Below, piece by piece: positions 1-22,748 of a stretch of 22,748 bases of DNA. This stretch comes from a virus (lineage: Duplodnaviria > Heunggongvirae > Uroviricota > Caudoviricetes), in IMG/VR virus record IMGVR_UViG_2671180674_000012, positions 1 through 22,748 of that record. One strand, 5' to 3'. The notes under the pieces were generated by a model that made no database searches, had not been told where the DNA came from, and was given only the letters and a program-made list of their open reading frames with translations. The position numbers and the translations under genes are program-made. Position 1 is the stretch's first letter; each line of letters starts with the position of its first letter.

Positions 1-1020
1 TTACTTACTGACCACAAGAGGTAGATCCAGTGTTGGCGTGATTTTTGTTTTGCGATCATAAATCAACACCTGATTTTCTGTTTTGTGCCCACTGAAAATT
101 TGTTTGTCGCGGCTGCTGCCTTCGTAATCTGAAATCCCTTTGGCTTTTATGTCATGGAAGTTGCACCCAAACGGAACGTCGGCTTTTTGCTCGGCTGCAC
201 GTTTAGCCTGATTCCACCAGTTGTTCAGCGTTTTAGCTATGACCTTCCCGCCTTTGGTTGTGTTGATCACATACTCGCATGTGCCGGAAGATACATTTCG
301 GGCTAATTGGATCACTGTGCGTAATCGCGGAGACCATTCCTTGATTTGTTTAGTGCCGGTCTTGTTTTGCTCAATGTAAATCCCTTTATCCATAATATCC
401 TGCCATTTCAGCTCGAGTACATCACCGAGCCTTGCCGCACAAAGATAGGATATCTCCATTGCAATACGTAACTGTGGAATTGCTTCCGCATATATCGCAG
501 CATACTGTTCATCGGTGATGTAAACAGTACGGGCTTTAAGCGTGAATTTTCTGACTCCTTTGCATGGATTATTTTTCACATACCCACGCTCATACCCCCA
601 TCCATATACGCGACTCAGACTTGCCAGTTCATGATTTGCCTGGGTCTTGCTCTCAAGCCCCCGTTTATCCATGAAAATTCTTACCTGCTCAATTTTTACA
701 TTATCAGCAAGCACTTTTCCGAATACCGCCAGCAACGCCCTTTGATGTTGTCGATAATCTTTTTGAGTTCGGGGTGCCAATTCTGTAAATGCAGGGGAGT
801 CCATAAACATGTGCCATAATTTAGCGACGGTCATTATGTCGTGGAGTTTTGCCTTTTCCAGTTCATAATTTTGCCAGACTTTAGCCACGCTGGTTTCCCG
901 CACCCTTCCGAGCCTTATCGTTCTCGTGCTTCCTTTGGGTTTCCATACGTAACTGTAACCATTCGATCTAACCCGTGGTGGCAGTACATTATCTTTTTTG
1001 TTTATTCTTGGTCTTCCCAT
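1..1020 (-). CDS. int: Tyrosine recombinase, phage integrase
   Basis: 339-aa ORF; C-terminal SGHKTENQVLIYDRK resembles the His/catalytic-Tyr region of lambda-family Int; overlapped at its start by an xis-like ORF; RBS GAGG upstream of ATG at 1020. Confidence 0.85.
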   Translation of the reverse strand: MGRPRINKKDNVLPPRVRSNGYSYVWKPKGSTRTIRLGRVRETSVAKVWQNYELEKAKLHDIMTVAKLWHMFMDSPAFTELAPRTQKDYRQHQRALLAVFGKVLADNVKIEQVRIFMDKRGLESKTQANHELASLSRVYGWGYERGYVKNNPCKGVRKFTLKARTVYITDEQYAAIYAEAIPQLRIAMEISYLCAARLGDVLELKWQDIMDKGIYIEQNKTGTKQIKEWSPRLRTVIQLARNVSSGTCEYVINTTKGGKVIAKTLNNWWNQAKRAAEQKADVPFGCNFHDIKAKGISDYEGSSRDKQIFSGHKTENQVLIYDRKTKITPTLDLPLVVSK

Positions 1021-1240
1021 TATTTAGTGCCTCAAAATCAGGTTCGGCAGAAACCAGTTCAGATGCATCCGGTATCGATGTCAGCCCTAGCGGAACGTCC
1101 TTGCGAAGAACTATTGGTTCATTTTTAGGTCCGGTTACAAATGGAATTCCGTGCAGCCTTAACTGGTGTTGCTGTCTTGTGTATCGCTCGTATCTCGTGA
1201 TCTCTTGAATCTCTGCTGGCGATAGAGTTAATTCGTACAT
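989..1240 (-). CDS. xis: Putative excisionase / small DNA-binding recombination directionality factor
   Basis: 83-aa ORF directly upstream of int, overlapping its start by 32 nt, as xis-int pairs typically do. Assigned by position and size, not by clear sequence recognition. Confidence 0.5.
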   Translation of the reverse strand: MYELTLSPAEIQEITRYERYTRQQHQLRLHGIPFVTGPKNEPIVLRKDVPLGLTSIPDASELVSAEPDFEALNNGKTKNKQKR

Positions 1241-1306: not shown

Positions 1307-3628
1307 TTAAAAATCAACCTGACTCGGGATCAGTTTTTGCCAGATAGCTGAAACTTGTTTTGCCTGGTGGCGGGCATCATCCAGTGCATTATGGCGTACG
1401 CCTTCGAACGGAATAGCTGTTCTGGCATCGAAGTCTATGGCTTTTCCCAGATCAACGATTGTGCGCACATCGCGATCGTTGCAGTAACGCCACGGGCAGG
1501 GGATACCCTGCCGTTCATATGAACGGCGTAAAATCACGTTGTCGAAGCTGGCTCCATTTCCCCAGACCCGAACAAAAAATTCACCGGAGTTTTCGTCGAT
1601 AAATTCCCGCAATTGCAATAGTGCATCATCTAACGGAATTTGATTTACCAATATTGCAGATCTGGCCTCGCTGGACTGCGCCAGCCACCATTCGATTACG
1701 TCACCATCGGGAGTAGCACCTTTGTCCATTGCGTCAACCAGACTGATGACAACATAAAATATCGGTCCGATTTCCCCGGTCTGCGGATCGAAAAACACTG
1801 CAGCAATAACTACGATGGGCGCATTGCTGTTAATTCCCATCGTTTCAAGGTCGATCATCAGATGGTGCCATACCCTGCTGGTGGATGTGATAATGTGATG
1901 ACTGTTCACCGTAATTAAGGGATCTGCCGCCTCGCCCATCACCGCGCCACAATCAGGGCAGTTGCCGCCACCGCTCTGACCGCAGGCGGTGCAGACTTTT
2001 TCCGGTTCTTGTTGCTCTTCTGGTTCAGGCTGTTTCGTTTCTGGCTCGTTTTGTAACGTATTTGGGCTGTTCTGTTCCGCTTTCTGGTCGTTTTGTTCCG
2101 ATTCGGGCAGGTTCTGGTTCACAGAATCGCGGGTTTCAATCCCCTTAACCCATTTCGGATCATTCGGGTCGCTAATTCCGTCAACGAACTCACCGCGATG
2201 GACTGCCAGTATTTTGTCGGCATCAGGCTGGTTGATATTGGTTGCCTGCATAATTTTGTTTACTTCGTCAGCGGTAACTTTTACCTGTTTAACTGGATCT
2301 ACCTGTTCCTGAGTATCCAGCGATTGCGTGTCCTGGTGATGTTCAGTTGTATCCGGCTCCATTGCTTCGGCCGTTGCCTGTTCATCTGCCATTGCGTCAG
2401 ACGGTTGTGATTTTTCCTCATTATTTTTTTCTTCTTCTGTTTCGCGTTCAGCAGCCAGTTCGCGGTTAACTTCTTCCAGGATATCTTTTTCCGGTGTATG
2501 TCGTGCAGCAGCGAGAGTTTCCTCGGTAGGGTTCTCGTGATCAGTCTCCGTTAAATAGGCGTTGATATACCCCTGAAGGCGTCCCGGGTAATGATAAAAC
2601 TCAGGGTGTGCGCTCCGGATAAGTGCAAAAATAGCGGCGCGGGAATAATCCAGGATACCCGGGATTGCGCGAAGTGCTGCGGACCATTCTTTGAACGGAC
2701 TTTCTTTCTTCTGGACGACTTCTTTTGCGCGACGATAAACGCTGCCCGGAATTTCATAAATATTAAAATCCATCGGAAGTGTGGCCGCTGCAATCTCCAC
2801 ATCCAGCGTATCGAAGGTGTGTACTAAATTCGGATTGCGATCGGTTTTGTTCCCGCCACCGGCATTTGCACCGGAAGCCGTACGGGTGATACGCGAAACA
2901 CGATTTCCTTTCATCCACTCTTTTGTCAGCAGACCGCGATCGGTGTAGTCGGCGTCCAGGTATGCTTCGATAAAAGAAGTTATCAGTCCCAGGTCCGAAT
3001 TTACGGGGGCGGGGAAAACTTTGTCAGTGTCTCGCACCAGTTTGTGGAGATCGCGAATCTCCAGCGGTTCGAGTTGCGCTGCTTTATTTGAGATAGCCAG
3101 CGCGGTAACGGCGGGAAGTTTTTCATCCTGTGCGTTATGTAATGCGCGCAGTTCGTCCCGCGAAACGTGTGTGATCGGTTTTTCGCTGCCGTGCTGTGCC
3201 AGCCATCGAACAGGCAGAATCTGACCTGAAACCGGCAGGAGCATGTTCTCCTCAATCTCAGTCATGTCTTCGCTGTTGACGTTGGTATTGTCAGTGTTGG
3301 CTGGTTTGTCCTGCGCAGAGGGTGAGGGCGCGATAAATACCATTGTGATGCCATCTTCCCCGCCTTTTTCGTAACGGTTACAGAATTCAGTATCAAACAC
3401 GCCTTCAGGTGGAAGGTCATTCACAACGGGTAAATGGACGCGGACGGGTTTTTTAAAGTCGTCTTCATCATAATCGTTGTCATCCATTGCGGTAATGCAG
3501 CGGGAGATGGCAACAGATAATTTTTTTGCTGTAGTCCAGTAAAAACCACCTTTAATTCCAAGGCGTTTTCTGACTTTGTCATTTTTTGCTTCACAATATA
3601 ATGCAAATTCTTCTTTATCAGTGCTCAT
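1307..3628 (-). CDS. Large multi-domain exonuclease: acidic low-complexity linker, CxxC...CxxC zinc ribbon, C-terminal DEDDh-type 3'-5' exonuclease domain
   Basis: 773-aa ORF with GAGGT RBS. C-terminus carries DEDDh motifs (MIDLET, WGNGASFD, HNALDDARH). Middle region has CTACGQSGGGNCPDCG and a long E/Q/P/D-rich segment. Confidence 0.7.
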   Translation of the reverse strand: MSTDKEEFALYCEAKNDKVRKRLGIKGGFYWTTAKKLSVAISRCITAMDDNDYDEDDFKKPVRVHLPVVNDLPPEGVFDTEFCNRYEKGGEDGITMVFIAPSPSAQDKPANTDNTNVNSEDMTEIEENMLLPVSGQILPVRWLAQHGSEKPITHVSRDELRALHNAQDEKLPAVTALAISNKAAQLEPLEIRDLHKLVRDTDKVFPAPVNSDLGLITSFIEAYLDADYTDRGLLTKEWMKGNRVSRITRTASGANAGGGNKTDRNPNLVHTFDTLDVEIAAATLPMDFNIYEIPGSVYRRAKEVVQKKESPFKEWSAALRAIPGILDYSRAAIFALIRSAHPEFYHYPGRLQGYINAYLTETDHENPTEETLAAARHTPEKDILEEVNRELAAERETEEEKNNEEKSQPSDAMADEQATAEAMEPDTTEHHQDTQSLDTQEQVDPVKQVKVTADEVNKIMQATNINQPDADKILAVHRGEFVDGISDPNDPKWVKGIETRDSVNQNLPESEQNDQKAEQNSPNTLQNEPETKQPEPEEQQEPEKVCTACGQSGGGNCPDCGAVMGEAADPLITVNSHHIITSTSRVWHHLMIDLETMGINSNAPIVVIAAVFFDPQTGEIGPIFYVVISLVDAMDKGATPDGDVIEWWLAQSSEARSAILVNQIPLDDALLQLREFIDENSGEFFVRVWGNGASFDNVILRRSYERQGIPCPWRYCNDRDVRTIVDLGKAIDFDARTAIPFEGVRHNALDDARHQAKQVSAIWQKLIPSQVDF

Positions 3629-3705
3629 TGATAAACCTCATTACAGATTTAAGGGTGAACAAATCCCTGTCATTGCTGACATATAAAAATGAAACCGAAT
3701 ATCAA

Positions 3706-3909
3706 TTACGGCGCTGTTTTAAGTCCTGCCGGGATTTCGTTATTATCCTGGTGAATAACTTTATCGACCGGATAACAGTTACCGGGAATTTTCTGTTCAT
3801 CTGCGGCAGCCATGCATTCTTTCATTGAGCTGTATACGCCAATAACCATGTCAACTGGTTCACCGGAAACAAGAAAAACCGTCAGAACAAGTGCAAATGT
3901 GGTATTCAT
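3706..3909 (-). CDS. Small hypothetical protein with hydrophobic N-terminus (possible signal/TM segment)
   Basis: ATG at 3909 overlaps the upstream gene's TGA (ATGA coupling); product begins MNTTFALVLTVFLVSG. The ORF-track start at 3963 would overlap the upstream gene. Confidence 0.4.
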   Translation of the reverse strand: MNTTFALVLTVFLVSGEPVDMVIGVYSSMKECMAAADEQKIPGNCYPVDKVIHQDNNEIPAGLKTAP

Positions 3910-4094
3910 TGCCAGCATCCTTTTTGCGTCGGGCGTAAACGGGCCAGCATTGAAGCAATGCATATCTCATTTGATGAATCTGGCTCATGCTTTATCTGAT
4001 TAATGGCATCCTCAATAAAGTTTTTATCGCCAGTGATAACGCCAATTTCAAAACGAGTCTCAGGCGTAGTGGAATTGAGTAATAACGTTTCCAT
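3906..4094 (-). CDS. Small hypothetical early-left protein (62 aa)
   Basis: Internal ATG at 4094 is preceded by GAGGA at good spacing; the longer ORF-track version (to 4229) has no RBS. Confidence 0.4.
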   Translation of the reverse strand: METLLLNSTTPETRFEIGVITGDKNFIEDAINQIKHEPDSSNEICIASMLARLRPTQKGCWQ

Positions 4095-4584
4095 TATCGC
4101 GTCCTCAACAATGAATTTTGTGATGCGGTGCCTGGTGCCTCCAGGTGACGTTAACCAGTTAACAATTAACGCCGGAATACAGGGACCCGCCTGCAAGTAC
4201 CTACCCATAAGTATTGATACGGAGAACAAATGGTCTTTTAACTGTTCCGCGTGCGCTTAGCCGCATTCACCACATCACAAAATTCACTTTAAAAAGGGCG
4301 GACATCAGCCAGCAATTAAACTGATGCCGCCAAAGGTCAATACTCAACATGGAGTGTTGTAGCGGGGTTGTCACTTAAGCGTATGGTCAACCTGCCAACC
4401 CGGTGCCACAATGGGGTAAGGATAACCCCGCCATACTTACCGCCGCGCCATTTCGCGGATTGCCACAACCGGAAGCGCACGGTCGAAGAAATCTAACGAC
4501 AAGACTTCTAAGGAAAAGAAACCTTCGCCGTGCGCTTTCGTGTTGTGTGCCTGCTTTTAACCACATCAGGCGAGGTGGTTCCTG

Positions 4585-4615
4585 TTGTTCCCCAACAACA
4601 AGAAATTTGTATAAT
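4585..4615 (+). promoter_or_regulatory. Putative sigma70 promoter for the antisense moron (TTGTTC -35, consensus TATAAT -10 at 4610-4615)
   Basis: Perfect TATAAT about 28 nt upstream of the ATG at 4643; -35-like hexamer with a 19-nt spacer (slightly long). Confidence 0.35.
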
Positions 4616-4642
4616 CCGGATACCCCAACAACACAGAGAAGA

Positions 4643-5161
4643 ATGCTATCTGGAATAACTTCATCAATAACGGCAATTAAAGTCTCGATTGATTTATTAC
4701 AGGTAATACTTGATGCAAAAAGCCAATCTGAACGTGAAAAGGCTGTCTACGAAATGCGTCGCCAACTGGCAGACTTACAAATACAGAACGCAGAGCTAGC
4801 GAAAACGCTCGCGCTTCAGTACGAGGAAATACTCTTGCTTAAGCAAAAATGTCATGAAATTGACGAGCGTAATCGAAAACTTGAATGCTATACGATACAC
4901 AAAACTGGTTTTGGGCATTTTGTCTATGCTTTCAGGAACAGCCTCGACGAAGAAGACACATGTTTTCACTATGCCTGTCCCAATTGCTATCAGCATGGTG
5001 TAATAGCAATACTTCAACCTGTTAAAATTGGTGAGCATGATAAGTTCCATATTTCTAAATGCCTGAAATGTGATTCGCGCTTTAAATTTGAACGCAATGA
5101 TGACTATATACCGCCCCCATCTGAAGAAGAGATAGGTAGAGCATTGAGCAGCAATCCGTAG
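4643..5161 (+). CDS. Hypothetical protein, predicted coiled-coil N-terminus and C-terminal CxxC...CxxC zinc-ribbon-like domain; moron antisense to the early-left operon
   Basis: 172-aa ORF from ATG 4643; the Arg-rich N-terminal extension in the ORF track (from 4403) looks non-coding. CPNCYQHG and CLKCDSRF motifs; lower GC than flanks; own promoter-like element. Confidence 0.55.
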   Translation: MLSGITSSITAIKVSIDLLQVILDAKSQSEREKAVYEMRRQLADLQIQNAELAKTLALQYEEILLLKQKCHEIDERNRKLECYTIHKTGFGHFVYAFRNSLDEEDTCFHYACPNCYQHGVIAILQPVKIGEHDKFHISKCLKCDSRFKFERNDDYIPPPSEEEIGRALSSNP

Positions 5162-5323
5162 GTTATTGCTGTTGTGGATATCCAGATTGTTAAAGAGCAT
5201 GCCGGAAGGTTATCCGTGTCCGGCGCACGACCACACGTAGCAGCGTGTTGGTCTCCATTTTTAATTCACCCCTTAATGGAGGATAAAATAATCGTGGTGC
5301 TGGTCGGCTCGGTCCCGCAGGTG

Positions 5324-5959
5324 TTACCCTTTAAACCAGTCAATCCAGAGCGGATAGTGTTCAGCATAAATATAGCTATACACATCCAGGTTGTATTTGC
5401 GGTCTGTCCTTAGCAGGTCGCAAATACAGGCCGCAGCTTCCAGGGCAGCAGCTTTGTTGCTGAATAACCATGTAGCAACATTCCGGCGATTATCTGTATC
5501 CCACTCTTTTGTGAGGGCTGACACCACGAAGGAGCCGTTGGTGTTGCCATCAAATACTTCCGTTTCCAGATTTTTAAGTAATGCCTGGTGAATTTTTGCC
5601 AGGTATTCAGTCGGAATTTCGCCACGAATTCGGATAAGTTTGTCATAAACAAACATGTTCCCCGCATATGGCGATTTTTCTTTCTTTTGTTCACTGGCAG
5701 GCTGGTCAATTTCGTCTTCGGTTGGTTTCGTATTGATGTTTTGCACTGTCGTTTCTGCAATTTTCTTTGCCACACTCTCTGAGTCGTGTTTATTTACAGG
5801 CGCACAGGAATACAGTCCGACAAACGCATCTCGCACATTTCGAGCCATATTATCAGTGTCTTTTTTCGTTACCGATTCCAATGCAAGTTCGTTCAGACGT
5901 TGACGTAGTGTGTGTACTGCAATCTCCTGGATTGATAGCGATAAATCTTTAAATTCCAT
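5324..5959 (-). CDS. Hypothetical early-left protein (211 aa)
   Basis: ATG at 5959 with GAGGT RBS, 11 nt downstream of the preceding gene's stop (operon arrangement). No family recognised. Confidence 0.55.
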   Translation of the reverse strand: MEFKDLSLSIQEIAVHTLRQRLNELALESVTKKDTDNMARNVRDAFVGLYSCAPVNKHDSESVAKKIAETTVQNINTKPTEDEIDQPASEQKKEKSPYAGNMFVYDKLIRIRGEIPTEYLAKIHQALLKNLETEVFDGNTNGSFVVSALTKEWDTDNRRNVATWLFSNKAAALEAAACICDLLRTDRKYNLDVYSYIYAEHYPLWIDWFKG

Positions 5960-5970
5960 CGTTAACCTCA

Positions 5971-6123
5971 TCAGTCAGTATTTCTGGCTAACCAGCGACG
6001 CGCGCCAGCTTCGGTTTTAAACGTTTTGCTTTTTGTATACGTCATCGCGGTGAACGTGCCGTCCTGGTTTGGGAACACGCCGTATACCAGAGATTCGTTG
6101 TTGCCAAGATCGATAGTATCCAT
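5971..6123 (-). CDS. Small hypothetical protein (50 aa), first gene of the early-left operon
   Basis: ATG at 6123 with GAGGT RBS, immediately downstream of the pL-like promoter; product MDTIDLGNNESLVYGVFPNQDGTFTAMTYTKSK... Confidence 0.4.
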   Translation of the reverse strand: MDTIDLGNNESLVYGVFPNQDGTFTAMTYTKSKTFKTEAGARRWLARNTD

Positions 6124-6196
6124 GTTGACCTCATATCCCCTTAACGCCGGGGTAGCGGAACTAAGACCTGTCGCACCGTTGTGCTTTGATGACCGA

Positions 6197-6224
6197 ATAA
6201 TACTACTTGAAGTAGACGTGTCAA
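6197..6224 (-). promoter_or_regulatory. pL-like early-left promoter with embedded operator palindrome
   Basis: On the minus strand: TTGACA (6224-6219), 16-nt spacer, TATTAT (6202-6197). The spacer contains the 13-bp palindrome CTACTTGAAGTAG (6203-6215); an additional AAGTAG half-site lies at 6231-6236. Confidence 0.5.
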
Positions 6225-6277
6225 CACTAAAAGTAGAGTGTGTTGTGTTTTTGTCTACATAAAATTGTTTTTTAAGG

Positions 6278-6303
6278 CAAAAAAAACCCGGCAATACCGG
6301 GGG
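6278..6303 (-). terminator. Rho-independent terminator downstream of the repressor gene
   Basis: Stem CCCGG/CCGGG with 5-nt loop; the 9-A run on plus (6278-6286) gives a U-tract after the hairpin on the minus strand. Confidence 0.55.
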
Positions 6304-6319
6304 TTGTTAACAGATAAAG

Positions 6320-6808
6320 TCACTCAGAAGGTGGTGGGGTGCTGGCGTATTTCTCGTAGAAATCGTAAAGTTTCTTGAGTCTCATCTCAAAAGCCAGAAG
6401 CATATTCCTGGCTTCAACTGGCGGAAACTCCCGAAACGTTCGTATCAGTCGCTTTTCATCTTCACTTAACTCAGTAAATTCGCCATTGCTATTGGCACCA
6501 GATCTTTGTGTTACAAATGAATCTTCTGCTGGTTCAATTCCTTTCTCTGTTAGCTGACCGTATTCCAGCCATGCAGGTTCAACTCCCAGAAATTCTGCTA
6601 TTCGTTCGAGTTTTTCGTCGCGGGGTTTAGCTGTACCTAGGGTGTAGCGCCGCGCCATTTCGTATGTGACGCCCGTAGATAAGCTTAAGTCTTTGATGGA
6701 TTTGTTTTTTCTATCCATTTCTGACTTAAGTCTTGTTGCGAATGCGTGATGTTTATGTGCGTTTTCTACCATATGTAGAAGATTAAAGCAGTTGCCTTGA
6801 TTCGTCAT
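6320..6808 (-). CDS. CI-like phage repressor, XRE-family HTH, no S24 peptidase domain
   Basis: HTH signature HAFATRLKSEMDRKNKSIKDLSLSTGVTYEMARRYTLG; divergent from the cro-like gene across an operator-rich gap. Start is ambiguous (ATG 6808 or 6772, or TTG 6829) and there is no SD, so possibly leaderless. Confidence 0.75.
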   Translation of the reverse strand: MTNQGNCFNLLHMVENAHKHHAFATRLKSEMDRKNKSIKDLSLSTGVTYEMARRYTLGTAKPRDEKLERIAEFLGVEPAWLEYGQLTEKGIEPAEDSFVTQRSGANSNGEFTELSEDEKRLIRTFREFPPVEARNMLLAFEMRLKKLYDFYEKYASTPPPSE

Positions 6809-6878: not shown

Positions 6879-7163
6879 ATGAGCACTACATACAAAAACA
6901 TTACAGAAAAGGCAGTTATGGTTATTGGTTCTCCCTCTGCTGTAAGTCGCATGTTTGGTTTCAAATCGCCTCAATCCATTTTTAATTGGATTATCAGGAA
7001 CAGGGTTCCTAGTGAGAGGGTTATTAGGCTTTGTGAGCTTGGGGAATGGATTGTTACTCCGCATGATCTCCGGCCTGATTTACACCCTACTCCAGTTAGT
7101 GGGATTCCAGAAGAAGTTATCAGATCCAAAAAAATAGGGTTGATTCATGAAAATCAAGCATGA
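6879..7163 (+). CDS. Cro-like / YdaS-family HTH protein
   Basis: ATG 6879 with GGAG RBS. Motif SIFNWIIRNRVPSERVIRLCELGEWIVTPHDLRPD resembles YdaS-type Cro proteins (GxxQxVxQWxxxxRVPxER...ELRPD). Confidence 0.6.
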   Translation: MSTTYKNITEKAVMVIGSPSAVSRMFGFKSPQSIFNWIIRNRVPSERVIRLCELGEWIVTPHDLRPDLHPTPVSGIPEEVIRSKKIGLIHENQA

Positions 7164-7572
7164 ACACATCCGTATGGCGATGAATGCCTGGGCGCATCCG
7201 GACGGTGAAAAAGTTCCGGCAGCTGAAATAACCCAGGCTTATTTTGAGTTGGGGCTGACGTTTCCTGAACTGTACGACGACAGCCATCCGGAAGCCCTGG
7301 GCCGTAACACCCAGAAAATTTTCCGCTGGGTGAAGAAAGACACTCCTGATGCGGTTAAAAAAATTCAGGCGTTGTTACCAGCGATCGAAAAAGCAATGCC
7401 GCCTCCGCTGGTGGCCCGAATGCGCAGCCACAGTTCCGCTTATTTTCGGGAGTTGGTAGAGACGAAGGAACGGCTGGTGAAAGATATTGATGATTTCGTT
7501 GCATCAGCGATCGTTCTGTTCGATCAGATGAATCGTGGTGGCCCGGCAGGAAACACTCTGGCTGTGCATTAA
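7147..7572 (+). CDS. YdaT-like protein (CII-position regulator of Rac-type prophages)
   Basis: Begins MKIKHEHI, which I recall as the YdaT N-terminus; overlaps the cro-like gene's end; Rac-like order racR-ydaS-ydaT. Confidence 0.5.
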   Translation: MKIKHEHIRMAMNAWAHPDGEKVPAAEITQAYFELGLTFPELYDDSHPEALGRNTQKIFRWVKKDTPDAVKKIQALLPAIEKAMPPPLVARMRSHSSAYFRELVETKERLVKDIDDFVASAIVLFDQMNRGGPAGNTLAVH

Positions 7573-7585
7573 TTGGGTAATAAAT

Positions 7586-8095
7586 ATGAGTAATGACAAA
7601 AAATTGACACTGAGCGTTTACGAAAACAGTCCGCACATCTGGCGTGGCGGTTTATCTGATGTGGAGCTGGCAGAGTGGTTGATACATAAAGCTAATGCGC
7701 TGCTCTGGCGTTTGTCAGCCAGAGAGCAGCGCAAGGAAACCAGAATAAAGCTGGCTGATGCAGAAGCGTGTGCCGGGCTTATTGAGGATTATACAAATCT
7801 TGGTATTTCTTCAGCAGAGAGTGATCCCATTCAGCCTCTGAGCAGGGAGTCAATCCAGCACGCTGGTTGTATGGCACATCTTGTAACTGCTCGTCAACAT
7901 GAGGTGGGTATTGGATCACTTTCGGTGGGATATTCGCTGATTCCAGAGCTGGTTGAAGCAAGAAAATCAGTTCAGAAAAAGAGAGATGACGCACTTCAAT
8001 TATTGAGAGAGCACTATGGCGCGATACCAGAATGCGAACAGCGTCGATACCCTGAAGGTTATGAATGGATGCAGTCTCTTTTTGAAGTTCGCTAA
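7586..8095 (+). CDS. Hypothetical phage early protein (169 aa)
   Basis: ATG 13 nt after the upstream stop; an alternative GTG at 7535 would overlap the upstream gene. No family recognised. Confidence 0.5.
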   Translation: MSNDKKLTLSVYENSPHIWRGGLSDVELAEWLIHKANALLWRLSAREQRKETRIKLADAEACAGLIEDYTNLGISSAESDPIQPLSRESIQHAGCMAHLVTARQHEVGIGSLSVGYSLIPELVEARKSVQKKRDDALQLLREHYGAIPECEQRRYPEGYEWMQSLFEVR

Positions 8096-13758: not shown

Positions 13759-13832
13759 CCGAAGCATTCACAACGGCAGGAATTGCGATGGCGGTGGCGC
13801 TGGTGGTGTATTCGATTTGCCGCTGGGGATAA
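13755..13832 (+). CDS. 25-aa hydrophobic peptide (MTEAFTTAGIAMAVALVVYSICRWG), translationally coupled
   Basis: ATGA overlap with the upstream stop; strong GGAGG SD 8 nt upstream; followed directly by a terminator. Absent from the ORF track because it is under 60 aa. Confidence 0.35.
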   Translation: MTEAFTTAGIAMAVALVVYSICRWG

Positions 13833-15122: not shown

Positions 15123-16172
15123 GTGCGGGTATTACTTCGACCTGTTCTGGTACCGGAACTTGGGCTGGTTATCGTTAAGCCAGGCCGTGAATCCATGCAG
15201 GTATTCCATAACGGCAGGGTGCTGGTGGAGCCGGAACCGAAAAACATGCGCGGTCTGCCGTCCGGAGTCGTTCCTGCCGTTCGCCAGCCGCTGGCGGAAG
15301 ATAAAACATTGCTGCCGTTTTTCAGCGATGAGCGTGTGATTCGTGCTGCTGGCGGCGCTGGCGCACTGTCTGACTGGCTCCTGCGTCATGTTAAATCCTG
15401 CCAGTGGCCTCATGGAGACTATCACCACAGTGAAACCGTCATACATCGTTACGGTACCGGCGCAATGGTGTTGTGCTGGCACTGCGACAACCAGCTGCGC
15501 GACCAGACATCCGAATCACTCGGGCAGCTTGCTCAACAAAATCTGACCGCCTGGATGATTGACGTCATACGTCACGCAATAAGTGGTGCACAGGAACGGG
15601 AATTATCGCTGGCTGAATTATCCTGGTGGGCGCTCTGCAATCAGGTAGCGGACGCACTACCGGAGGCAGTATTACGTCGTTCTCTGGGGTTACGCGCGGA
15701 AAAAATCCACTCAGTATACCGCGAGAGTAACATCATACCGGGAGAACAGACAGCCACCAGCATACTGAAGCAGCGCACAAAAAATTTTGCGCCGTTGCCT
15801 CACGCCCACCAGCAACAGAACCCACCACAGGAAAAGACGGTTGTAAGTATCACAGTTGATCCGGAGTCACCGGAATCATTCATGAAGCGGCCTAAACGTC
15901 GCCGCTGGGTGAATGAGAAATACACGCGCTGGGTAAAGACACAGCCGTGTACGTGTTGTGGTAAGCCAGCAGACGATCCCCATCACCTGATTGGTCACGG
16001 TCAGGGCGGAATGGGGACAAAAGCCCACGATATTTTTACGTTGCCGCTGTGCCGGGAACATCACAACGAACTTCATGCAGATCCGCAGGCGTTCGAAGAA
16101 AAGCATGGTTCTCAGGTTGATTTAATTTTTCGTTTTCTTGATCACGCCTTTGCAACTGGCGTACTCGGATAA
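15123..16172 (+). CDS. DUF968-family prophage protein with C-terminal HNH-like zinc-binding motif
   Basis: C-terminal CTCCGKPADDPHHLIGHGQGGMGTKAHDIFTLPLCREHHNELH; sits upstream of rusA and Q as ydfU does in Qin-like prophages. Confidence 0.6.
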   Translation: MRVLLRPVLVPELGLVIVKPGRESMQVFHNGRVLVEPEPKNMRGLPSGVVPAVRQPLAEDKTLLPFFSDERVIRAAGGAGALSDWLLRHVKSCQWPHGDYHHSETVIHRYGTGAMVLCWHCDNQLRDQTSESLGQLAQQNLTAWMIDVIRHAISGAQERELSLAELSWWALCNQVADALPEAVLRRSLGLRAEKIHSVYRESNIIPGEQTATSILKQRTKNFAPLPHAHQQQNPPQEKTVVSITVDPESPESFMKRPKRRRWVNEKYTRWVKTQPCTCCGKPADDPHHLIGHGQGGMGTKAHDIFTLPLCREHHNELHADPQAFEEKHGSQVDLIFRFLDHAFATGVLG

Positions 16173-17382: not shown

Positions 17383-17410
17383 TTGATTTTTCCCGAATCT
17401 GTGGTAAATT
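17383..17410 (+). promoter_or_regulatory. pR'-like late promoter
   Basis: TTGATT (17383-17388), 16-nt spacer, TAAATT (17405-17410), immediately after the Q-like stop. Confidence 0.4.
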
Positions 17411-17458
17411 CGCCCTAACGATGGGCGTTTTGTGCCTGACGTTAGCGTGATTTCTACA

Positions 17459-17481
17459 ACCCGCCAGCGAGCGGGTTTTTT
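17459..17481 (+). terminator. tR'-like terminator downstream of the late promoter
   Basis: Short GC stem (CCGC/GCGG, loop CAGCGA) followed by TTTTTT; an earlier hairpin CGCCC/GGGCG with TTTT lies at 17411-17431. Confidence 0.5.
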
Positions 17482-17642
17482 GTTGTGATAGATAACAACT
17501 CCAGGTGGCATTCATTAGTGAATATTAGTTAATGTGTGCTGCCATGCGTTAAAAGATGTCAATTCGTTATTGACCGATATCAAATTATGGAAAGATGAAT
17601 TTCATTACTATTGAAAATCCGTTGTTTCAATAGGTGATATTT

Positions 17643-18359
17643 ATGCATAAACTAATTAAGCTGTTTTCATTTTTTATTGCACTATCGATATCTCAGTGTT
17701 ATGCCACTAGTAATGAATTCATAAGCGCCAGTAACAGTAGGGCATTTTCATTTTTTTTGCCTACAGGGCAAGCAATGGCTATCCAGTATCTTGATGGACT
17801 TAAAAGATATTCAGCGAGTGAGATTATAGACGATTTCAATAATAATGAATTGAGAGCAAAGAAAAAGTATAAAGATATATTCATCATAAACTCAACAGCG
17901 CGGGCGATTAAGCAAGACCTTGATGATAGGTTTTTTGTTCTGCTAAGGGATGGTAATAGTGGATTTGAATCGTTTTATGCTTACTATGATAAGAAATCAG
18001 AAGGTGACTTAGAGTTTCTTAACGAAGGTGATAATGTGGAGTTTATTTGCTCCAATGTTAAAAACATCATTATGCCAAGAGCGGAATGTTTTTCTATCGC
18101 TTTAAATCTTGAATCTAAAAATATTCAGGGAAACCCTATAAGATTTTTTGATAATGCTTATAAGTTGCAAAACACTTATAAGGCTACAAAAATAACATTT
18201 ATACTTTATTCTCTTCTGAAGGATAAAATTGAAAAGGACTGCGAAGAATCTATTGAAGCATGCAACCTGGCTGCCAGGAGGTTTACGGATAATGGCGCAT
18301 TACTTGACTCCATGCTTGAACCTTATGCGGATATGTTAAGTAAAATCGGTAACAATTAA
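17643..18359 (+). CDS. Secreted protein with Sec-type signal peptide and OB-fold (tRNA_anti-like) domain; AT-rich cargo
   Basis: AGGTGA RBS 5 nt before ATG; N-terminus MHKLIKLFSFFIALSISQCYA; central region resembles the tRNA_anti-like OB-fold pattern from memory; markedly AT-rich. Confidence 0.55.
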   Translation: MHKLIKLFSFFIALSISQCYATSNEFISASNSRAFSFFLPTGQAMAIQYLDGLKRYSASEIIDDFNNNELRAKKKYKDIFIINSTARAIKQDLDDRFFVLLRDGNSGFESFYAYYDKKSEGDLEFLNEGDNVEFICSNVKNIIMPRAECFSIALNLESKNIQGNPIRFFDNAYKLQNTYKATKITFILYSLLKDKIEKDCEESIEACNLAARRFTDNGALLDSMLEPYADMLSKIGNN

Positions 18360-18481
18360 CAAGGTTACATTCCAGGCATCCTGCCAGGGCTGCTTTTTTT
18401 ACCTCATTTACATCTATTGCTTGCTGGCTTTTTGGACAAGAGTTATTGGTATGTCACGTTAACCAGAAAAGGAAAAAAGAC

Positions 18482-18679
18482 ATGCTAAAACAGCAGGATA
18501 TGACCGAAACCGCCAGAGTGGTGTTTAATGAGTTAAGCGTCACCGAACCGGCGACCGTCGGGGAGATTGCACAGAATACTTACCTTTCACGCGAACGCTG
18601 CCAGTTAATACTGACCCAGCTTGTTATGGCGGGTCTGGCAGATTATCAGTTCGGTTGTTACAGACGCCTTTCGCAGTGA
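18482..18679 (+). CDS. Small HTH/winged-helix-like protein (65 aa), possible controller-type regulator
   Basis: ATG with AAAGGA RBS; TVGEIAQNTYLSRERCQLILTQLVMAGL is HTH-like; directly upstream of the methyltransferase. Confidence 0.45.
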   Translation: MLKQQDMTETARVVFNELSVTEPATVGEIAQNTYLSRERCQLILTQLVMAGLADYQFGCYRRLSQ

Positions 18680-18692: not shown

Positions 18693-18829
18693 TGTGGTAA
18701 TGGGCGGCTGGTGGGTGTTAGCGGCACCTGCCAGCCATCTGCTCATGCGTTGGGGTCACAAGCAAACCTCAGGCCCATCTGCTTTGCGCAAAAGCGGAAT
18801 GAGCCTATCAGAGAAGTGCTTATTGATCT

Positions 18830-19876
18830 ATGATTAATACTGTAAAAATATCCAGTTGTGAGTTAATCAACGCTGATTGCCTGGAATTTATCCAGACCTT
18901 ACCGGAAAACTCTGTCGATCTGATAGTCACAGACCCGCCATACTTTAAAGTGAAGCCCGAGGGCTGGGATAACCAGTGGAAGGGCGACGCTGATTACCTG
19001 CAATGGCTGGACCAGTGTCTTGCGCAGTTTTGGCGGGTATTAAAACCCGCCGGAAGTCTTTACCTGTTCTGTGGTCATCGCCTGGCATCTGACACCGAAC
19101 TCATGATGCGTGAACGTTTTAATGTGCTGAACCACATTATCTGGGCGAAGCCGTCCGGACGCTGGAATGGGTGCAACAAGGAAAGCCTGCGGGCGTATTT
19201 CCCGGCAACAGAGCGCATTCTGTTTGCCGAACATTATCAGGGGCCATACCAGCCCAAAAGTGACGGTTATGCAGCAAAGGGGCGCGAGCTTAAGCAGCAT
19301 GTCATGGCCCCGCTGATTTCTTACTTTCGTGATGCGCGCGAATCACTGGGGATAACGTCAAAACAGATAGCAGAAGCCACCGGAAAGAAAAACATGGCTT
19401 CGCACTGGTTTGGTACCAGTCAGTGGCAGTTACCGAATGAGGCCGATTACAGTAAACTGCAGGCGCTGTTTGCACGTGTGGCGGCAGAAAAACACCAGCG
19501 CGGTGAACTGGAGCAGCCACACCACCAGCTGGTCAGCACATACAGCGAACTGAACCGGCAATATGCCAGCCTGCTGGAGGAATACAAATCACTGCGGCGT
19601 TATTTTTCCGTATCGGCTGTCGTTCCTTATACGGATGTCTGGACGCACAAGCCCGTGCAGTATTATCCGGGTAAGCATCCCTGTGAAAAACCGGCGGATA
19701 TGTTGCGTCAGATAATTACTGCCAGCAGCCGTCCAGGCGATTTGGTCGCAGATTTTTTTATGGGGTCGGGGTCGACAATAAAAGCGGCACTGTCGCTGGG
19801 ACGCAGGGCGATTGGCGTGGAACTGGAAGAGGAACGTTTTAATCAGACGGTCAGAGAAATAACGAAAGATTTTTAA
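18830..19876 (+). CDS. DNA methyltransferase, N6-adenine/N4-cytosine type, beta-class motif order
   Basis: DPPY catalytic motif near the N-terminus (LIVTDPPYF) and AdoMet motif FFMGSGST near the C-terminus; 348 aa. Confidence 0.85.
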   Translation: MINTVKISSCELINADCLEFIQTLPENSVDLIVTDPPYFKVKPEGWDNQWKGDADYLQWLDQCLAQFWRVLKPAGSLYLFCGHRLASDTELMMRERFNVLNHIIWAKPSGRWNGCNKESLRAYFPATERILFAEHYQGPYQPKSDGYAAKGRELKQHVMAPLISYFRDARESLGITSKQIAEATGKKNMASHWFGTSQWQLPNEADYSKLQALFARVAAEKHQRGELEQPHHQLVSTYSELNRQYASLLEEYKSLRRYFSVSAVVPYTDVWTHKPVQYYPGKHPCEKPADMLRQIITASSRPGDLVADFFMGSGSTIKAALSLGRRAIGVELEEERFNQTVREITKDF

Positions 19877-21834: not shown

Positions 21835-21862
21835 GCGGGCATTGAAAGCCCGCTGCATTTTT
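21835..21862 (+). terminator. Terminator between convergent genes
   Basis: GCGGGC-ATTGAAA-GCCCGC followed by TGCATTTTTA; overlaps the stop codon of the minus-strand DUF4145 gene. Confidence 0.45.
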
Positions 21863-22541
21863 ATTGCTGCTGTTCCTTAATGCGTTCCGGTAGCACAAAT
21901 GCCACTTCAAGGAACAGGCGGAGAAACGCCACAAACTCTTTTGCCTGTTCACCACTGGCCTCGAGCTCGTGCACAGCCTCATTGCCTTCCATACGGATTC
22001 GGTGAGCCCAGTTTCTCATTGATTCCGTCAGTATGCCGTCCTGCCGTGCCAGTTCAATGCGTGACAGCAGATTGCCTTTTTCGTACCCCAGGGCACGGAG
22101 GGCAACCTCGAGGACGCTACGGCAGCCAACAATGATACGCGGGGCGGTTCTGCCGGACCGAACATCCTCCTGCAACTCGGTGAAGACTGCGCGAATTTTT
22201 TCGGGATAGTGGGGGGAGTCATCGGGCAGCCTGAGTTCAGGATAGATTTTGATGCTTCCCTCAAGTGGAGCATTCAGCACCCAGGCTTTGTTGTTGATGG
22301 CTTTTTTCATGTCCACCAGTTCACTGACTGAACATTCGAATGCGATCATTAATGGGTTGTTACATTCTGTGCAAAAGTCTGTTGAGTATGCTTTTGCTGA
22401 TGTTATTTCAGAGGTGCGCGGCTGTTGCACGTAAAGCTTGTTTTCTGTAGCCGGGCGCCTGCTGTGGTACTGGGTGACCTCATTCAGAGAAATATGAACC
22501 TGATGAAGGCAGTACGGGCATCTAATTTTCAGGGAGTACAT
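21861..22541 (-). CDS. Zinc-ribbon plus DUF4145-domain protein
   Basis: ATG at 22541 with AAGAGG upstream; N-terminus MYSLKIRCPYC...CTECNNP; C-terminus matches my recollection of DUF4145 (RSVLEVALRALG...NWAHRIRMEGNEAVHE...FVLPERI). The ORF-track extension to 22730 lacks an RBS. Confidence 0.6.
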   Translation of the reverse strand: MYSLKIRCPYCLHQVHISLNEVTQYHSRRPATENKLYVQQPRTSEITSAKAYSTDFCTECNNPLMIAFECSVSELVDMKKAINNKAWVLNAPLEGSIKIYPELRLPDDSPHYPEKIRAVFTELQEDVRSGRTAPRIIVGCRSVLEVALRALGYEKGNLLSRIELARQDGILTESMRNWAHRIRMEGNEAVHELEASGEQAKEFVAFLRLFLEVAFVLPERIKEQQQ

Positions 22542-22748
22542 ATGACCTCTTCGACAGAAGTGATAACTGAATTTGAAAATTGCATAGCAGATTCTGCCAT
22601 TGATTCTGTAGCAGCGATAGAACGAAGGTTTGCTGCTGCTCAGACCCGGTATGGTCATGATGCAGCCGTCAAAGGGCTGGCAATGGCGTTTGTTATTGCG
22701 GAGAACCGCCGTCGCTTTATTGAAGCGCAAATGACACTAAAGCAATAA
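22542..22748 (+). CDS. Small hypothetical protein (68 aa), divergent from the DUF4145 gene
   Basis: ATG 22542 with AGGGAG SD at 5-nt spacing; product MTSSTEVITEFENCIADSAIDSVAAIERRF... ; the window ends at its stop codon. Confidence 0.5.
   Translation: MTSSTEVITEFENCIADSAIDSVAAIERRFAAAQTRYGHDAAVKGLAMAFVIAENRRRFIEAQMTLKQ

Follow-up and report, generated by a model that had tools for sequence, protein, structure and literature searches.

The DNA analyzed here, referred to as the window, is the stretch of 22,748 nucleotides at positions 1 to 22,748 of the IMG/VR virus record IMGVR_UViG_2671180674_000012. Near its left end lies a 773-residue open reading frame (ORF) in which a RecE-type N-terminal region is joined to a DEDDh 3'-5' exonuclease domain (Table 1). 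By domain scan of the window ORFs, an excisionase-like gene (xis) and a tyrosine integrase gene (int) were found directly downstream on the same strand, in agreement with an earlier note on this DNA that had placed the gene in the slot next to xis. The stop codon of the exonuclease gene is at position 1307 and xis is next at 1240, with no recT between the two. On the upstream side, ydfD-like and dicB genes belong to the same operon, and further upstream of dicB a DUF1391 gene and a cI-like repressor gene were detected by Pfam and PHROG scans. Rightwards in the window are YdaS/YdaT-type cro/cII genes, replication genes, a nin-like region (DUF968/HNH, RusA), Q and a DNA methylase gene. This layout is that of a lambdoid prophage, with the 773-residue ORF closing the leftward early operon ahead of xis-int. 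The order dicB-ydfD-exo-xis-int recurs in phage vB_EcoS-640R1, phage mEp460 and the Qin prophage of E. coli K-12, and it was the only order found in isolated phages that carry the fusion. A promoter and terminator scan of the window gave counts not above those of shuffled sequence, with no promoter-like site directly upstream of the exonuclease gene, and a tRNA scan of the window found none.

Table 1. Positions of the exonuclease gene, the parts of its product, the adjoining genes and the Chi sites in the window.
Feature	Positions	Strand	Basis
Complete 773-residue ORF: RecE N-terminal region plus DEDDh exonuclease	1307..3628	-	Single uninterrupted ATG ORF; 100% identical proteins in NCBI
Residues 1-100, small alpha/beta domain, includes start of Exonuc_VIII match	3329..3628	-	AlphaFold2 and Pfam
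Residues 113-400, mostly helical domain common to RecE; conserved loop RTASGANAGGGNKTDR at 248-263	2429..3292	-	
Residues 401-545, acidic Q/P/E-rich linker, predicted disordered, with conserved island at ~453-500 (RGEFVDGISDPNDPKWVKGI); also in RecE	1994..2428	-	Composition, predicted local distance difference test (pLDDT), RecE alignment
Residues 546-560, CTACGQSGGGNCPDC, four-cysteine zinc-ribbon-like motif; last element common to RecE (RecE CNACGQTGGDNCPDC)	1949..1993	-	
Residues 588-763, DEDDh 3'-5' exonuclease domain, Rv2179c/DexA family	1340..1867	-	Pfam, PDB sequence match, alignments
GAGG Shine-Dalgarno sequence, 7 nucleotides 5' of the ATG	3636..3639	-	Read from sequence
Tyrosine integrase (int)	1..1020	-	Domain scan of window ORFs
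Excisionase-like gene xis (DUF4224), directly downstream of the exonuclease gene	989..1240	-	Domain scan
ydfD-like gene (DUF1482) and dicB, upstream in the same operon	3706..4229	-	Domain scan
Chi sites, lambda-active orientation (5)	1877-1884, 7407-7414, 13799-13806, 15221-15228, 18707-18714	+	
Chi sites, other orientation (3)	15754-15761, 15806-15813, 19522-19529	-	

The C-terminal domain of the protein was matched by Pfam PF16473 (Rv2179c-like 3'-5' exoribonuclease) at E 1e-65 and 221 bits, against a gathering threshold of 27, over the complete profile (positions 1-177/177). In alignments with T4 DexA and 12 distant representatives of the family, the catalytic residues D593, E595, D696, H746 and D751 were all conserved, and the active site is thus intact. 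The only solved structures reached by sequence were those of T4 DexA (8KEL and 8KEN; E 4e-6 for 8KEL), and Rv2179c of M. tuberculosis, the founding member of PF16473, was not recovered at E ≤0.01 when PDB was searched by phmmer. The PD-(D/E)XK nuclease domain typical of RecE (PF12684) had no Pfam match in the 773-residue protein, whereas in RecE of the K-12 Rac prophage it was detected at residues 615-850. These results bear out the earlier note, which had recognized a DEDDh domain at the C-terminus and described RecE as a PD-(D/E)XK enzyme; the PD-(D/E)XK fold that it had named as the alternative for the C-terminus was not found there.

The N-terminal part of the chain proved to be related to RecE. 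Pfam Exonuc_VIII (PF06630) was detected at residues 57-189 (E 3e-27; 96 bits against a cut-off of 25), and by BLASTP residues 58-567 were 54% identical to residues 50-538 of Rac RecE, with the glycine-rich loop, acidic linker, conserved island and zinc ribbon all included. This common stretch stops just past the zinc ribbon, and BLASTP against K-12 RecE revealed no similarity past residue 567. The RecE equivalog model (NCBIfam PRK09709 / NF007259) was likewise matched only in part, over profile positions 1-550 of 877, with a score of 811 bits versus a cut-off of 1269. The CxxC...CxxC zinc ribbon and the acidic low-complexity linker to which the earlier note had drawn attention are both present. 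The CxxC motifs are at residues 546-549 and 557-560, and the linker extends over residues 365-541 (26% D/E, net charge -30) with the conserved island interrupting it; its 177 residues make the former estimate of roughly 200 slightly too high. Since both elements fall in the part common to RecE, they are RecE features and not novelties. Among 84 long representatives of the family, only seven have the zinc-ribbon motif.

Given this homology of residues 1-567 to the RecE N-terminus, the protein is not a novel one but a C-terminal domain swap on a RecE chassis in which only the nuclease has been exchanged. It is classed here as a member of the Rv2179c/DexA DEDDh family with a RecE N-terminal module, and it lacks the features that define RecE (equivalog score above the cut-off, PD-(D/E)XK domain and adjacent recT). 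In Rac RecE a PD-(D/E)XK 5'-3' nuclease completes the protein and the recT gene follows, whereas the 773-residue protein ends in a DEDDh 3'-5' domain and has no recT beside it. With T4 DexA it shares the DEDDh fold family and all catalytic residues; however, identity is only ~30%, and DexA is a stand-alone protein of 227 residues with extra loops and no RecE-type N-terminal region. The N-terminal domain of RecE itself has been found dispensable for basic recombination, while it enhances linear-linear recombination (2023 review, PMC11611040).

The structure of the N-terminal part was predicted by AlphaFold2 with an alignment of 84-85 family members. Two folded parts with pLDDT >90 were obtained, one small and alpha/beta (residues 1-100) and one mostly helical (residues 113-400), with a mean pLDDT of 91.3 for the model of residues 1-405. 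Residues 401-590 were predicted to be disordered except for short helices at 453-477, and outside these helices pLDDT was <50 in the linker (residues 401-545). Foldseek found no convincing relative of the N-terminal fold in PDB (best E 0.57) or in BFVD (best E 0.19). Thus, of the domain search and structure prediction that the earlier note had proposed for the N-terminal half, the former uncovered the RecE homology while the latter yielded no fold relative, and the predicted fold does not reveal a function.

Residues 1-570 also served as the query for an exhaustive profile-free search of 1.84 billion cluster representatives. As only 243 clusters were returned, the N-terminal family is narrow. 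Its 84 representatives of at least 450 residues include 15 with a DEDDh domain, 21 with a PD-(D/E)XK domain, ~45 with neither and three with a RecT domain. In the clearest of these three RecE-N::RecT cases (P0244, 703 residues), RecE 50-527 is joined directly to RecT 83-269; this fusion was rejected as a designed architecture, as it looks like a deletion product inside a recET operon. The N-terminal module occurs with a 5'-3' PD-(D/E)XK nuclease (RecE), with a 3'-5' DEDDh nuclease (the protein studied here) and in nuclease-less form beside a lambda-type Exo. The last of these is a 'RecE family' protein of ~690 residues, equivalent to the 'RecE-2' proteins without nuclease domain that were described in Stx-type phages (PMC12315714). 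It shares the N-terminal module with the 773-residue protein (45% identity over residues 1-566) but has no recognizable nuclease domain. This form is widespread in E. coli and is encoded directly upstream of gam-bet-exo in phage PhiR5_2 (positions 4001-6073 of locus L006) and in Shigella phage 75/02 Stx. A further variant is found in mEp460, where an 823-residue protein has a different first 270 residues followed by the common middle part and the DEDDh domain. Gene ydfE of K-12 Qin (positions 7079-7999 of locus L091) corresponds to the start of this mEp460-type form, truncated by IS2, with 96% identity over 256 residues. Two K-12 genes considered as possible fragments of the 773-residue protein were rejected: exoD (DLP12) showed no similarity to it, and ydfE gave no match, belonging instead to the mEp460-type variant. 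Nothing on function was found in the literature on ydfE and Rv2179c.

The two-part architecture is real, intact, already catalogued as a family and very common in E. coli prophages. Proteins 100% identical over 773 residues are present in NCBI from many contigs, under the names 'exodeoxyribonuclease VIII', 'exonuclease' and '3'-5' exoribonuclease', and their precomputed Pfam architecture is also PF06630 plus PF16473. The same two parts were found in 15 separate clusters at 50% identity. Together with the identical NCBI proteins, these clusters show that the ORF is not an artifactual fusion of two genes separated by a frameshift, a possibility that the earlier note had raised. The architecture is covered by PHROGs families phrog_2082 and phrog_20376, and it is named 'exonuclease' or '3'-5' exonuclease' by the Prokaryotic Genome Annotation Pipeline (PGAP). 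Of 5426 complete E. coli genomes, 4058 contain DNA matching that of the DEDDh domain, with a total of 8006 places and up to seven per genome; in an evenly spaced sample of the ranking, coverage was at least 58% down to about rank 3900. As DNA for the RecE nuclease part plus recT was found in 1750 complete E. coli genomes, the DEDDh form is the commoner occupant of this position in the species. The term 'unusual' that the earlier note had applied to the architecture is thus not tenable, and the sense of rarity arose because only Rac RecE was known to its writer. Taken together, the observation made in that note is confirmed and its interpretation is partly supported, in that the nuclease type does differ from that of RecE and an annealase is missing, but domain swaps of this kind on a RecE chassis are common and already catalogued, and the protein is no oddity.

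A decaying remnant without function was considered as an explanation for the gene, as many of the copies in complete genomes are partial, the copy in E. coli C5 is split and ydfE of K-12, of the mEp460 type, is truncated by IS2. By contrast, the window copy is unbroken and has both a ribosome-binding site and every catalytic residue; full-length proteins identical to its product are encoded on many contigs, and the architecture is kept across at least 10 genera at 30-50% identity and is present in viable phages. Decay is, in light of these findings, very unlikely for this gene. In E. coli C5, which is the closest complete genome, the ortholog (positions 4307-6673 of locus L001) is broken into an 'exonuclease' coding sequence and a partial 'RecE family exodeoxyribonuclease' pseudogene, and the prophage that carries it is integrated beside yccA.

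Occurrence outside E. coli was surveyed by a scan of one genome per species. The fusion was found in Escherichia albertii, E. ruysiae, Klebsiella, Citrobacter, Kosakonia, Kluyvera, Atlantibacter, Buttiauxella, Dryocola, Phytobacter, Enterobacter and Leclercia. Stand-alone DEDDh proteins of 182-200 residues, 55-63% identical to the C-terminal domain, were found in Salmonella, Erwinia, Serratia, Pantoea, Photorhabdus, Providencia, Arsenophonus and others. Fused and stand-alone genes alike are located directly upstream of excisionase and integrase genes, and in 78 loci from different Enterobacterales species the exonuclease gene is just upstream of xis-int. The stand-alone enzymes, which correspond to the 'DnaQ-type nuclease near int' of PMC12315714, resemble the fused form also in lying in Chi-rich, orientation-biased DNA, but they are without the RecE N-terminal module. 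At the stand-alone loci (L028-L089), genes for phage SSB (at position -1), RdgC and DUF2303/YfdQ often precede the exonuclease gene and xis-int follows it. An unclassified protein of 188 residues with no Pfam match, which presumably resembles YfdR, is also often encoded upstream at such loci. Close homologs were in addition noted on contigs labeled as a Veillonella parvula metagenome-assembled genome (MAG), an Actinomycetes MAG, Chryseobacterium sp. and Streptomyces plumbiresistens (loci L010, L047, L072 and L079), and the homolog on the Veillonella parvula MAG contig is a full-length fusion with 79% identity. These contigs are most likely Enterobacteriaceae contaminants of binning or assembly.

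No homolog of RecT, Red-beta, lambda Exo, Gam or the RecE-type PD-(D/E)XK nuclease was detected among the window ORFs by Pfam and PHROG scans, and nothing was returned when the window, translated in all six frames, was searched by phmmer with these five proteins as queries (residues 606-866 for the RecE nuclease). From int to the late region neither an annealase nor a RecBCD inhibitor was found in the window, which is part of a prophage and in which very small ORFs were not assessed. The statement of the earlier note that no recT-like annealase lies next to the gene is accordingly upheld. The search for an annealase partner in related prophages that it had suggested was also carried out: in 80 related loci, phmmer detected no homolog of the same five proteins up to 7 kb from the gene. 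Phage mEp460, a viable phage with a complete genome of 60 genes, carries the fusion and RusA with no annotated annealase.

The tails left by a 3'-5' enzyme are 5' tails, and an annealase is missing; a RecET-type system is therefore taken to be excluded, and the 773-residue protein would not be expected to perform exonuclease-plus-annealase recombination of the RecET/Red type. A RecET-like system whose annealase partner has escaped recognition would agree with the position of the gene, which is that of recET and exo-bet, and several neighboring ORFs, such as those at 5324-5971 (phrog_2151) and 4403-5161, are without assigned function. However, none of the neighbors without assigned function is conserved across loci, no RecT/Bet homolog was found in the window or the related loci, and the ORFs that separate cI from the exonuclease gene in mEp460 are all small. 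In addition, RecT and Red-beta act on the 3' tails that result from 5'-3' resection, and the strong enrichment of Chi described below points to the host pathway. A concealed partner of this kind is thus highly improbable.

Chi sites (GCTGGTGG) are present eight times in the 22.7-kb window, compared to an expectation of 0.62 from shuffles that preserve dinucleotides; in 100 such shuffles eight sites were never reached. The + strand sites are on the strand corresponding to the lambda top strand, and one of them (1877..1884) is inside the exonuclease gene, antisense to the gene and in the lambda-active orientation. Chi was also counted in 78 related prophage loci with a fused or stand-alone exonuclease. 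Prophage DNA upstream of the exonuclease gene in these loci contains 145 sites in the active orientation versus 28 in the other, with 5.6 per strand predicted by base composition, and within the exonuclease genes 56 sites are antisense (active) versus seven sense. When pooled, the counts are 201 active versus 35 in the other orientation (p = 2e-29), at 0.35-0.73 sites per kb. In DNA >2.5 kb beyond the exonuclease gene, 32 versus 17 sites were found (0.14-0.19 per kb). As the related loci are Chi-rich and orientation-biased, the prophages with this exonuclease, whether fused or stand-alone, fall into the Chi-rich class, for which use of RecBCD and RecA of the host is expected. A lambdoid class with 'no Rec module, Chi-rich' has been described, the type phage of which grows better with RecBCD, and in the same study DnaQ-type nuclease genes 'very near int' were excluded from the Rec-module genes (PMC12315714). 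The missing annealase of the prophage in the window matches this published class, which is reliant on host RecBCD.

On balance, we consider it probable that the 773-residue protein is an intact two-part product of the early-left operon that acts as a 3'-5' DNA exonuclease in a prophage without annealase and reliant on RecBCD, and that it is not a recombinase of the RecET type. Upon induction, the protein would be made from the leftward early promoter and would act as a Mg2+-dependent 3'-5' exonuclease on 3' ends of DNA, with the RecE-type N-terminal module serving as a scaffold or targeting part independent of the polarity of the nuclease. It is known that 3' tails hinder the reloading of RecBCD unless they are removed by 3'-5' single-strand exonucleases (PMC5592934). 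We speculate that 3' tails on phage DNA ends may be trimmed by the protein such that RecBCD, which needs flush ends, could load and reach Chi. The association of these exonuclease genes with Chi-rich, oriented prophage DNA would link them to the recently described RecBCD-dependent lambdoid phages.

Several points weigh against this assignment. The density of Chi in the window is 1.6 times the E. coli chromosomal average and not significantly above it (P = 0.13), and host-like drift of a resident prophage is therefore possible for this one element. DnaQ-like 3'-5' exonucleases usually inhibit homologous recombination, and no early-left gene is universal in the Chi-rich class without Rec module (PMC12315714). 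Expression from the early-left promoter is deduced only from the order of the genes and the fact that nothing promoter-like directly precedes this one, and the searches for a fold relative give no indication of a role for the N-terminal module. Furthermore, the sequence does not decide between DNA and RNA as substrate, because Rv2179c is itself an exoribonuclease.

The latter point bears on a second explanation, in which the protein is an exoribonuclease like Rv2179c, a stand-alone enzyme, and trims or degrades the 3' ends of RNA such as early transcripts, host RNA or small RNAs (e.g., DicF, the gene of which lies upstream in related prophages). In its favor, the Pfam family takes its name from an exoribonuclease, and the name given by PGAP is often '3'-5' exoribonuclease'. 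By contrast, DexA of T4 and EcD of E. coli, which are the nearest characterized relatives from phages and prophages, are DNA exonucleases, the domain stands in for a DNA exonuclease on the RecE chassis, and the stand-alone homologs adjoin SSB and RdgC genes. We regard action on RNA as quite improbable, and a DNA exonuclease is retained as the preferred assignment.

A third explanation is suggested by the relationship to EcD. DexA is a 3'-5' DNA exonuclease, and EcD, its E. coli homolog, digests T4 DNA containing 5-hydroxymethylcytosine (5hmC) and, if supplied on a plasmid, confers protection against T4 ('HREX'; PMC12153337, 2025). An EcD-like gene was recovered through the forward primer of the published EcD polymerase chain reaction primer pair; the reverse primer had one match in viral contigs, which was judged to be due to chance. 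The recovered gene encodes a stand-alone protein of 189 residues, starting with MIDTET and with Ala at position 78, in agreement with the description of EcD (PMC12153337). It is located in the early region of a different type of temperate phage, beside Dam-like methylase, repressor and integrase genes, and its product is of the same Pfam family and 37% identical to residues 591-773 (E 2e-33). By analogy, the 773-residue protein may be an HREX-type nuclease of phage competition or defense that would digest the 5hmC-type DNA of superinfecting T-even phages and spare unmodified host and prophage DNA. Membership of the DexA and EcD family, the protection afforded by plasmid-expressed EcD and the fact that EcD is itself an early-region gene of a temperate phage are consistent with such a role. 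However, the residues proposed to recognize 5hmC are not evidently conserved: by MAFFT, the columns of DexA W152 and D169 correspond to C716 and A730, with W713, D732 and D734 nearby and the alignment uncertain in this region. DexA S87 is not conserved either, and EcD has W where C716 is found here. In addition, the tetramer-forming D90 of DexA, which is replaced by A78 in EcD and the loss of which defines the dimeric state of EcD-like enzymes, is kept as D668, and PADLOC gave no hit for the 773-residue protein. Expression in the lysogen would also not be expected, since the gene ends the repressed early-left operon and is without its own promoter-like site. A role in competition or defense is therefore judged unlikely.

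With regard to the N-terminal region, it is conceivable, though rather doubtful, that the RecE-type N-terminal region (residues 1-400) is an autonomous module directed to DNA ends or to a host partner and used with nucleases of either polarity, and that the DEDDh fusion is a phage-encoded helper of RecBCD and Chi in the formation of concatemers for packaging. If this is the case, trimming of 3' tails would let RecBCD reach the oriented Chi sites of the phage and thereby yield the concatemers needed for packaging. These 400 residues are shared with RecE, have a confidently predicted fold without structural relative and are paired with nucleases of opposite polarity, which makes their function an approachable question. 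For annotation, the label 'exodeoxyribonuclease VIII' on many phage records implies the wrong nuclease polarity and the wrong fold, and the DEDDh domain is present in prophages of roughly three in four complete E. coli genomes.

A number of other genes in the window were noted. Within the early-left region, the 252-residue ORF at 4403-5161 is on the opposite strand (+), matches phrog_1244 (function not assigned) with no Pfam hit, has C-terminal CxxC...CxxC motifs and is annotated as "hypothetical protein" in the closest E. coli genome; it may be an accessory gene expressed in the lysogen. Just downstream of the Q antiterminator gene, a position often occupied by cargo genes, is an island of low G+C content at ~17400-18500 (0.35 versus ~0.48 in the surrounding DNA), and inside it is a 241-residue ORF at 17634-18359 (+), the sole match of which was a weak one to tRNA_anti-like (OB-fold). 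Between Q and the late region, an N6/N4 DNA methyltransferase (PF01555, E 4e-44) is encoded at 18830-19876 (+). On the opposite strand at 21861-22730 (-), a 289-residue DUF4145 protein gave a weak PADLOC match to PD-T7-4 (E 0.001) and is a possible defense gene.

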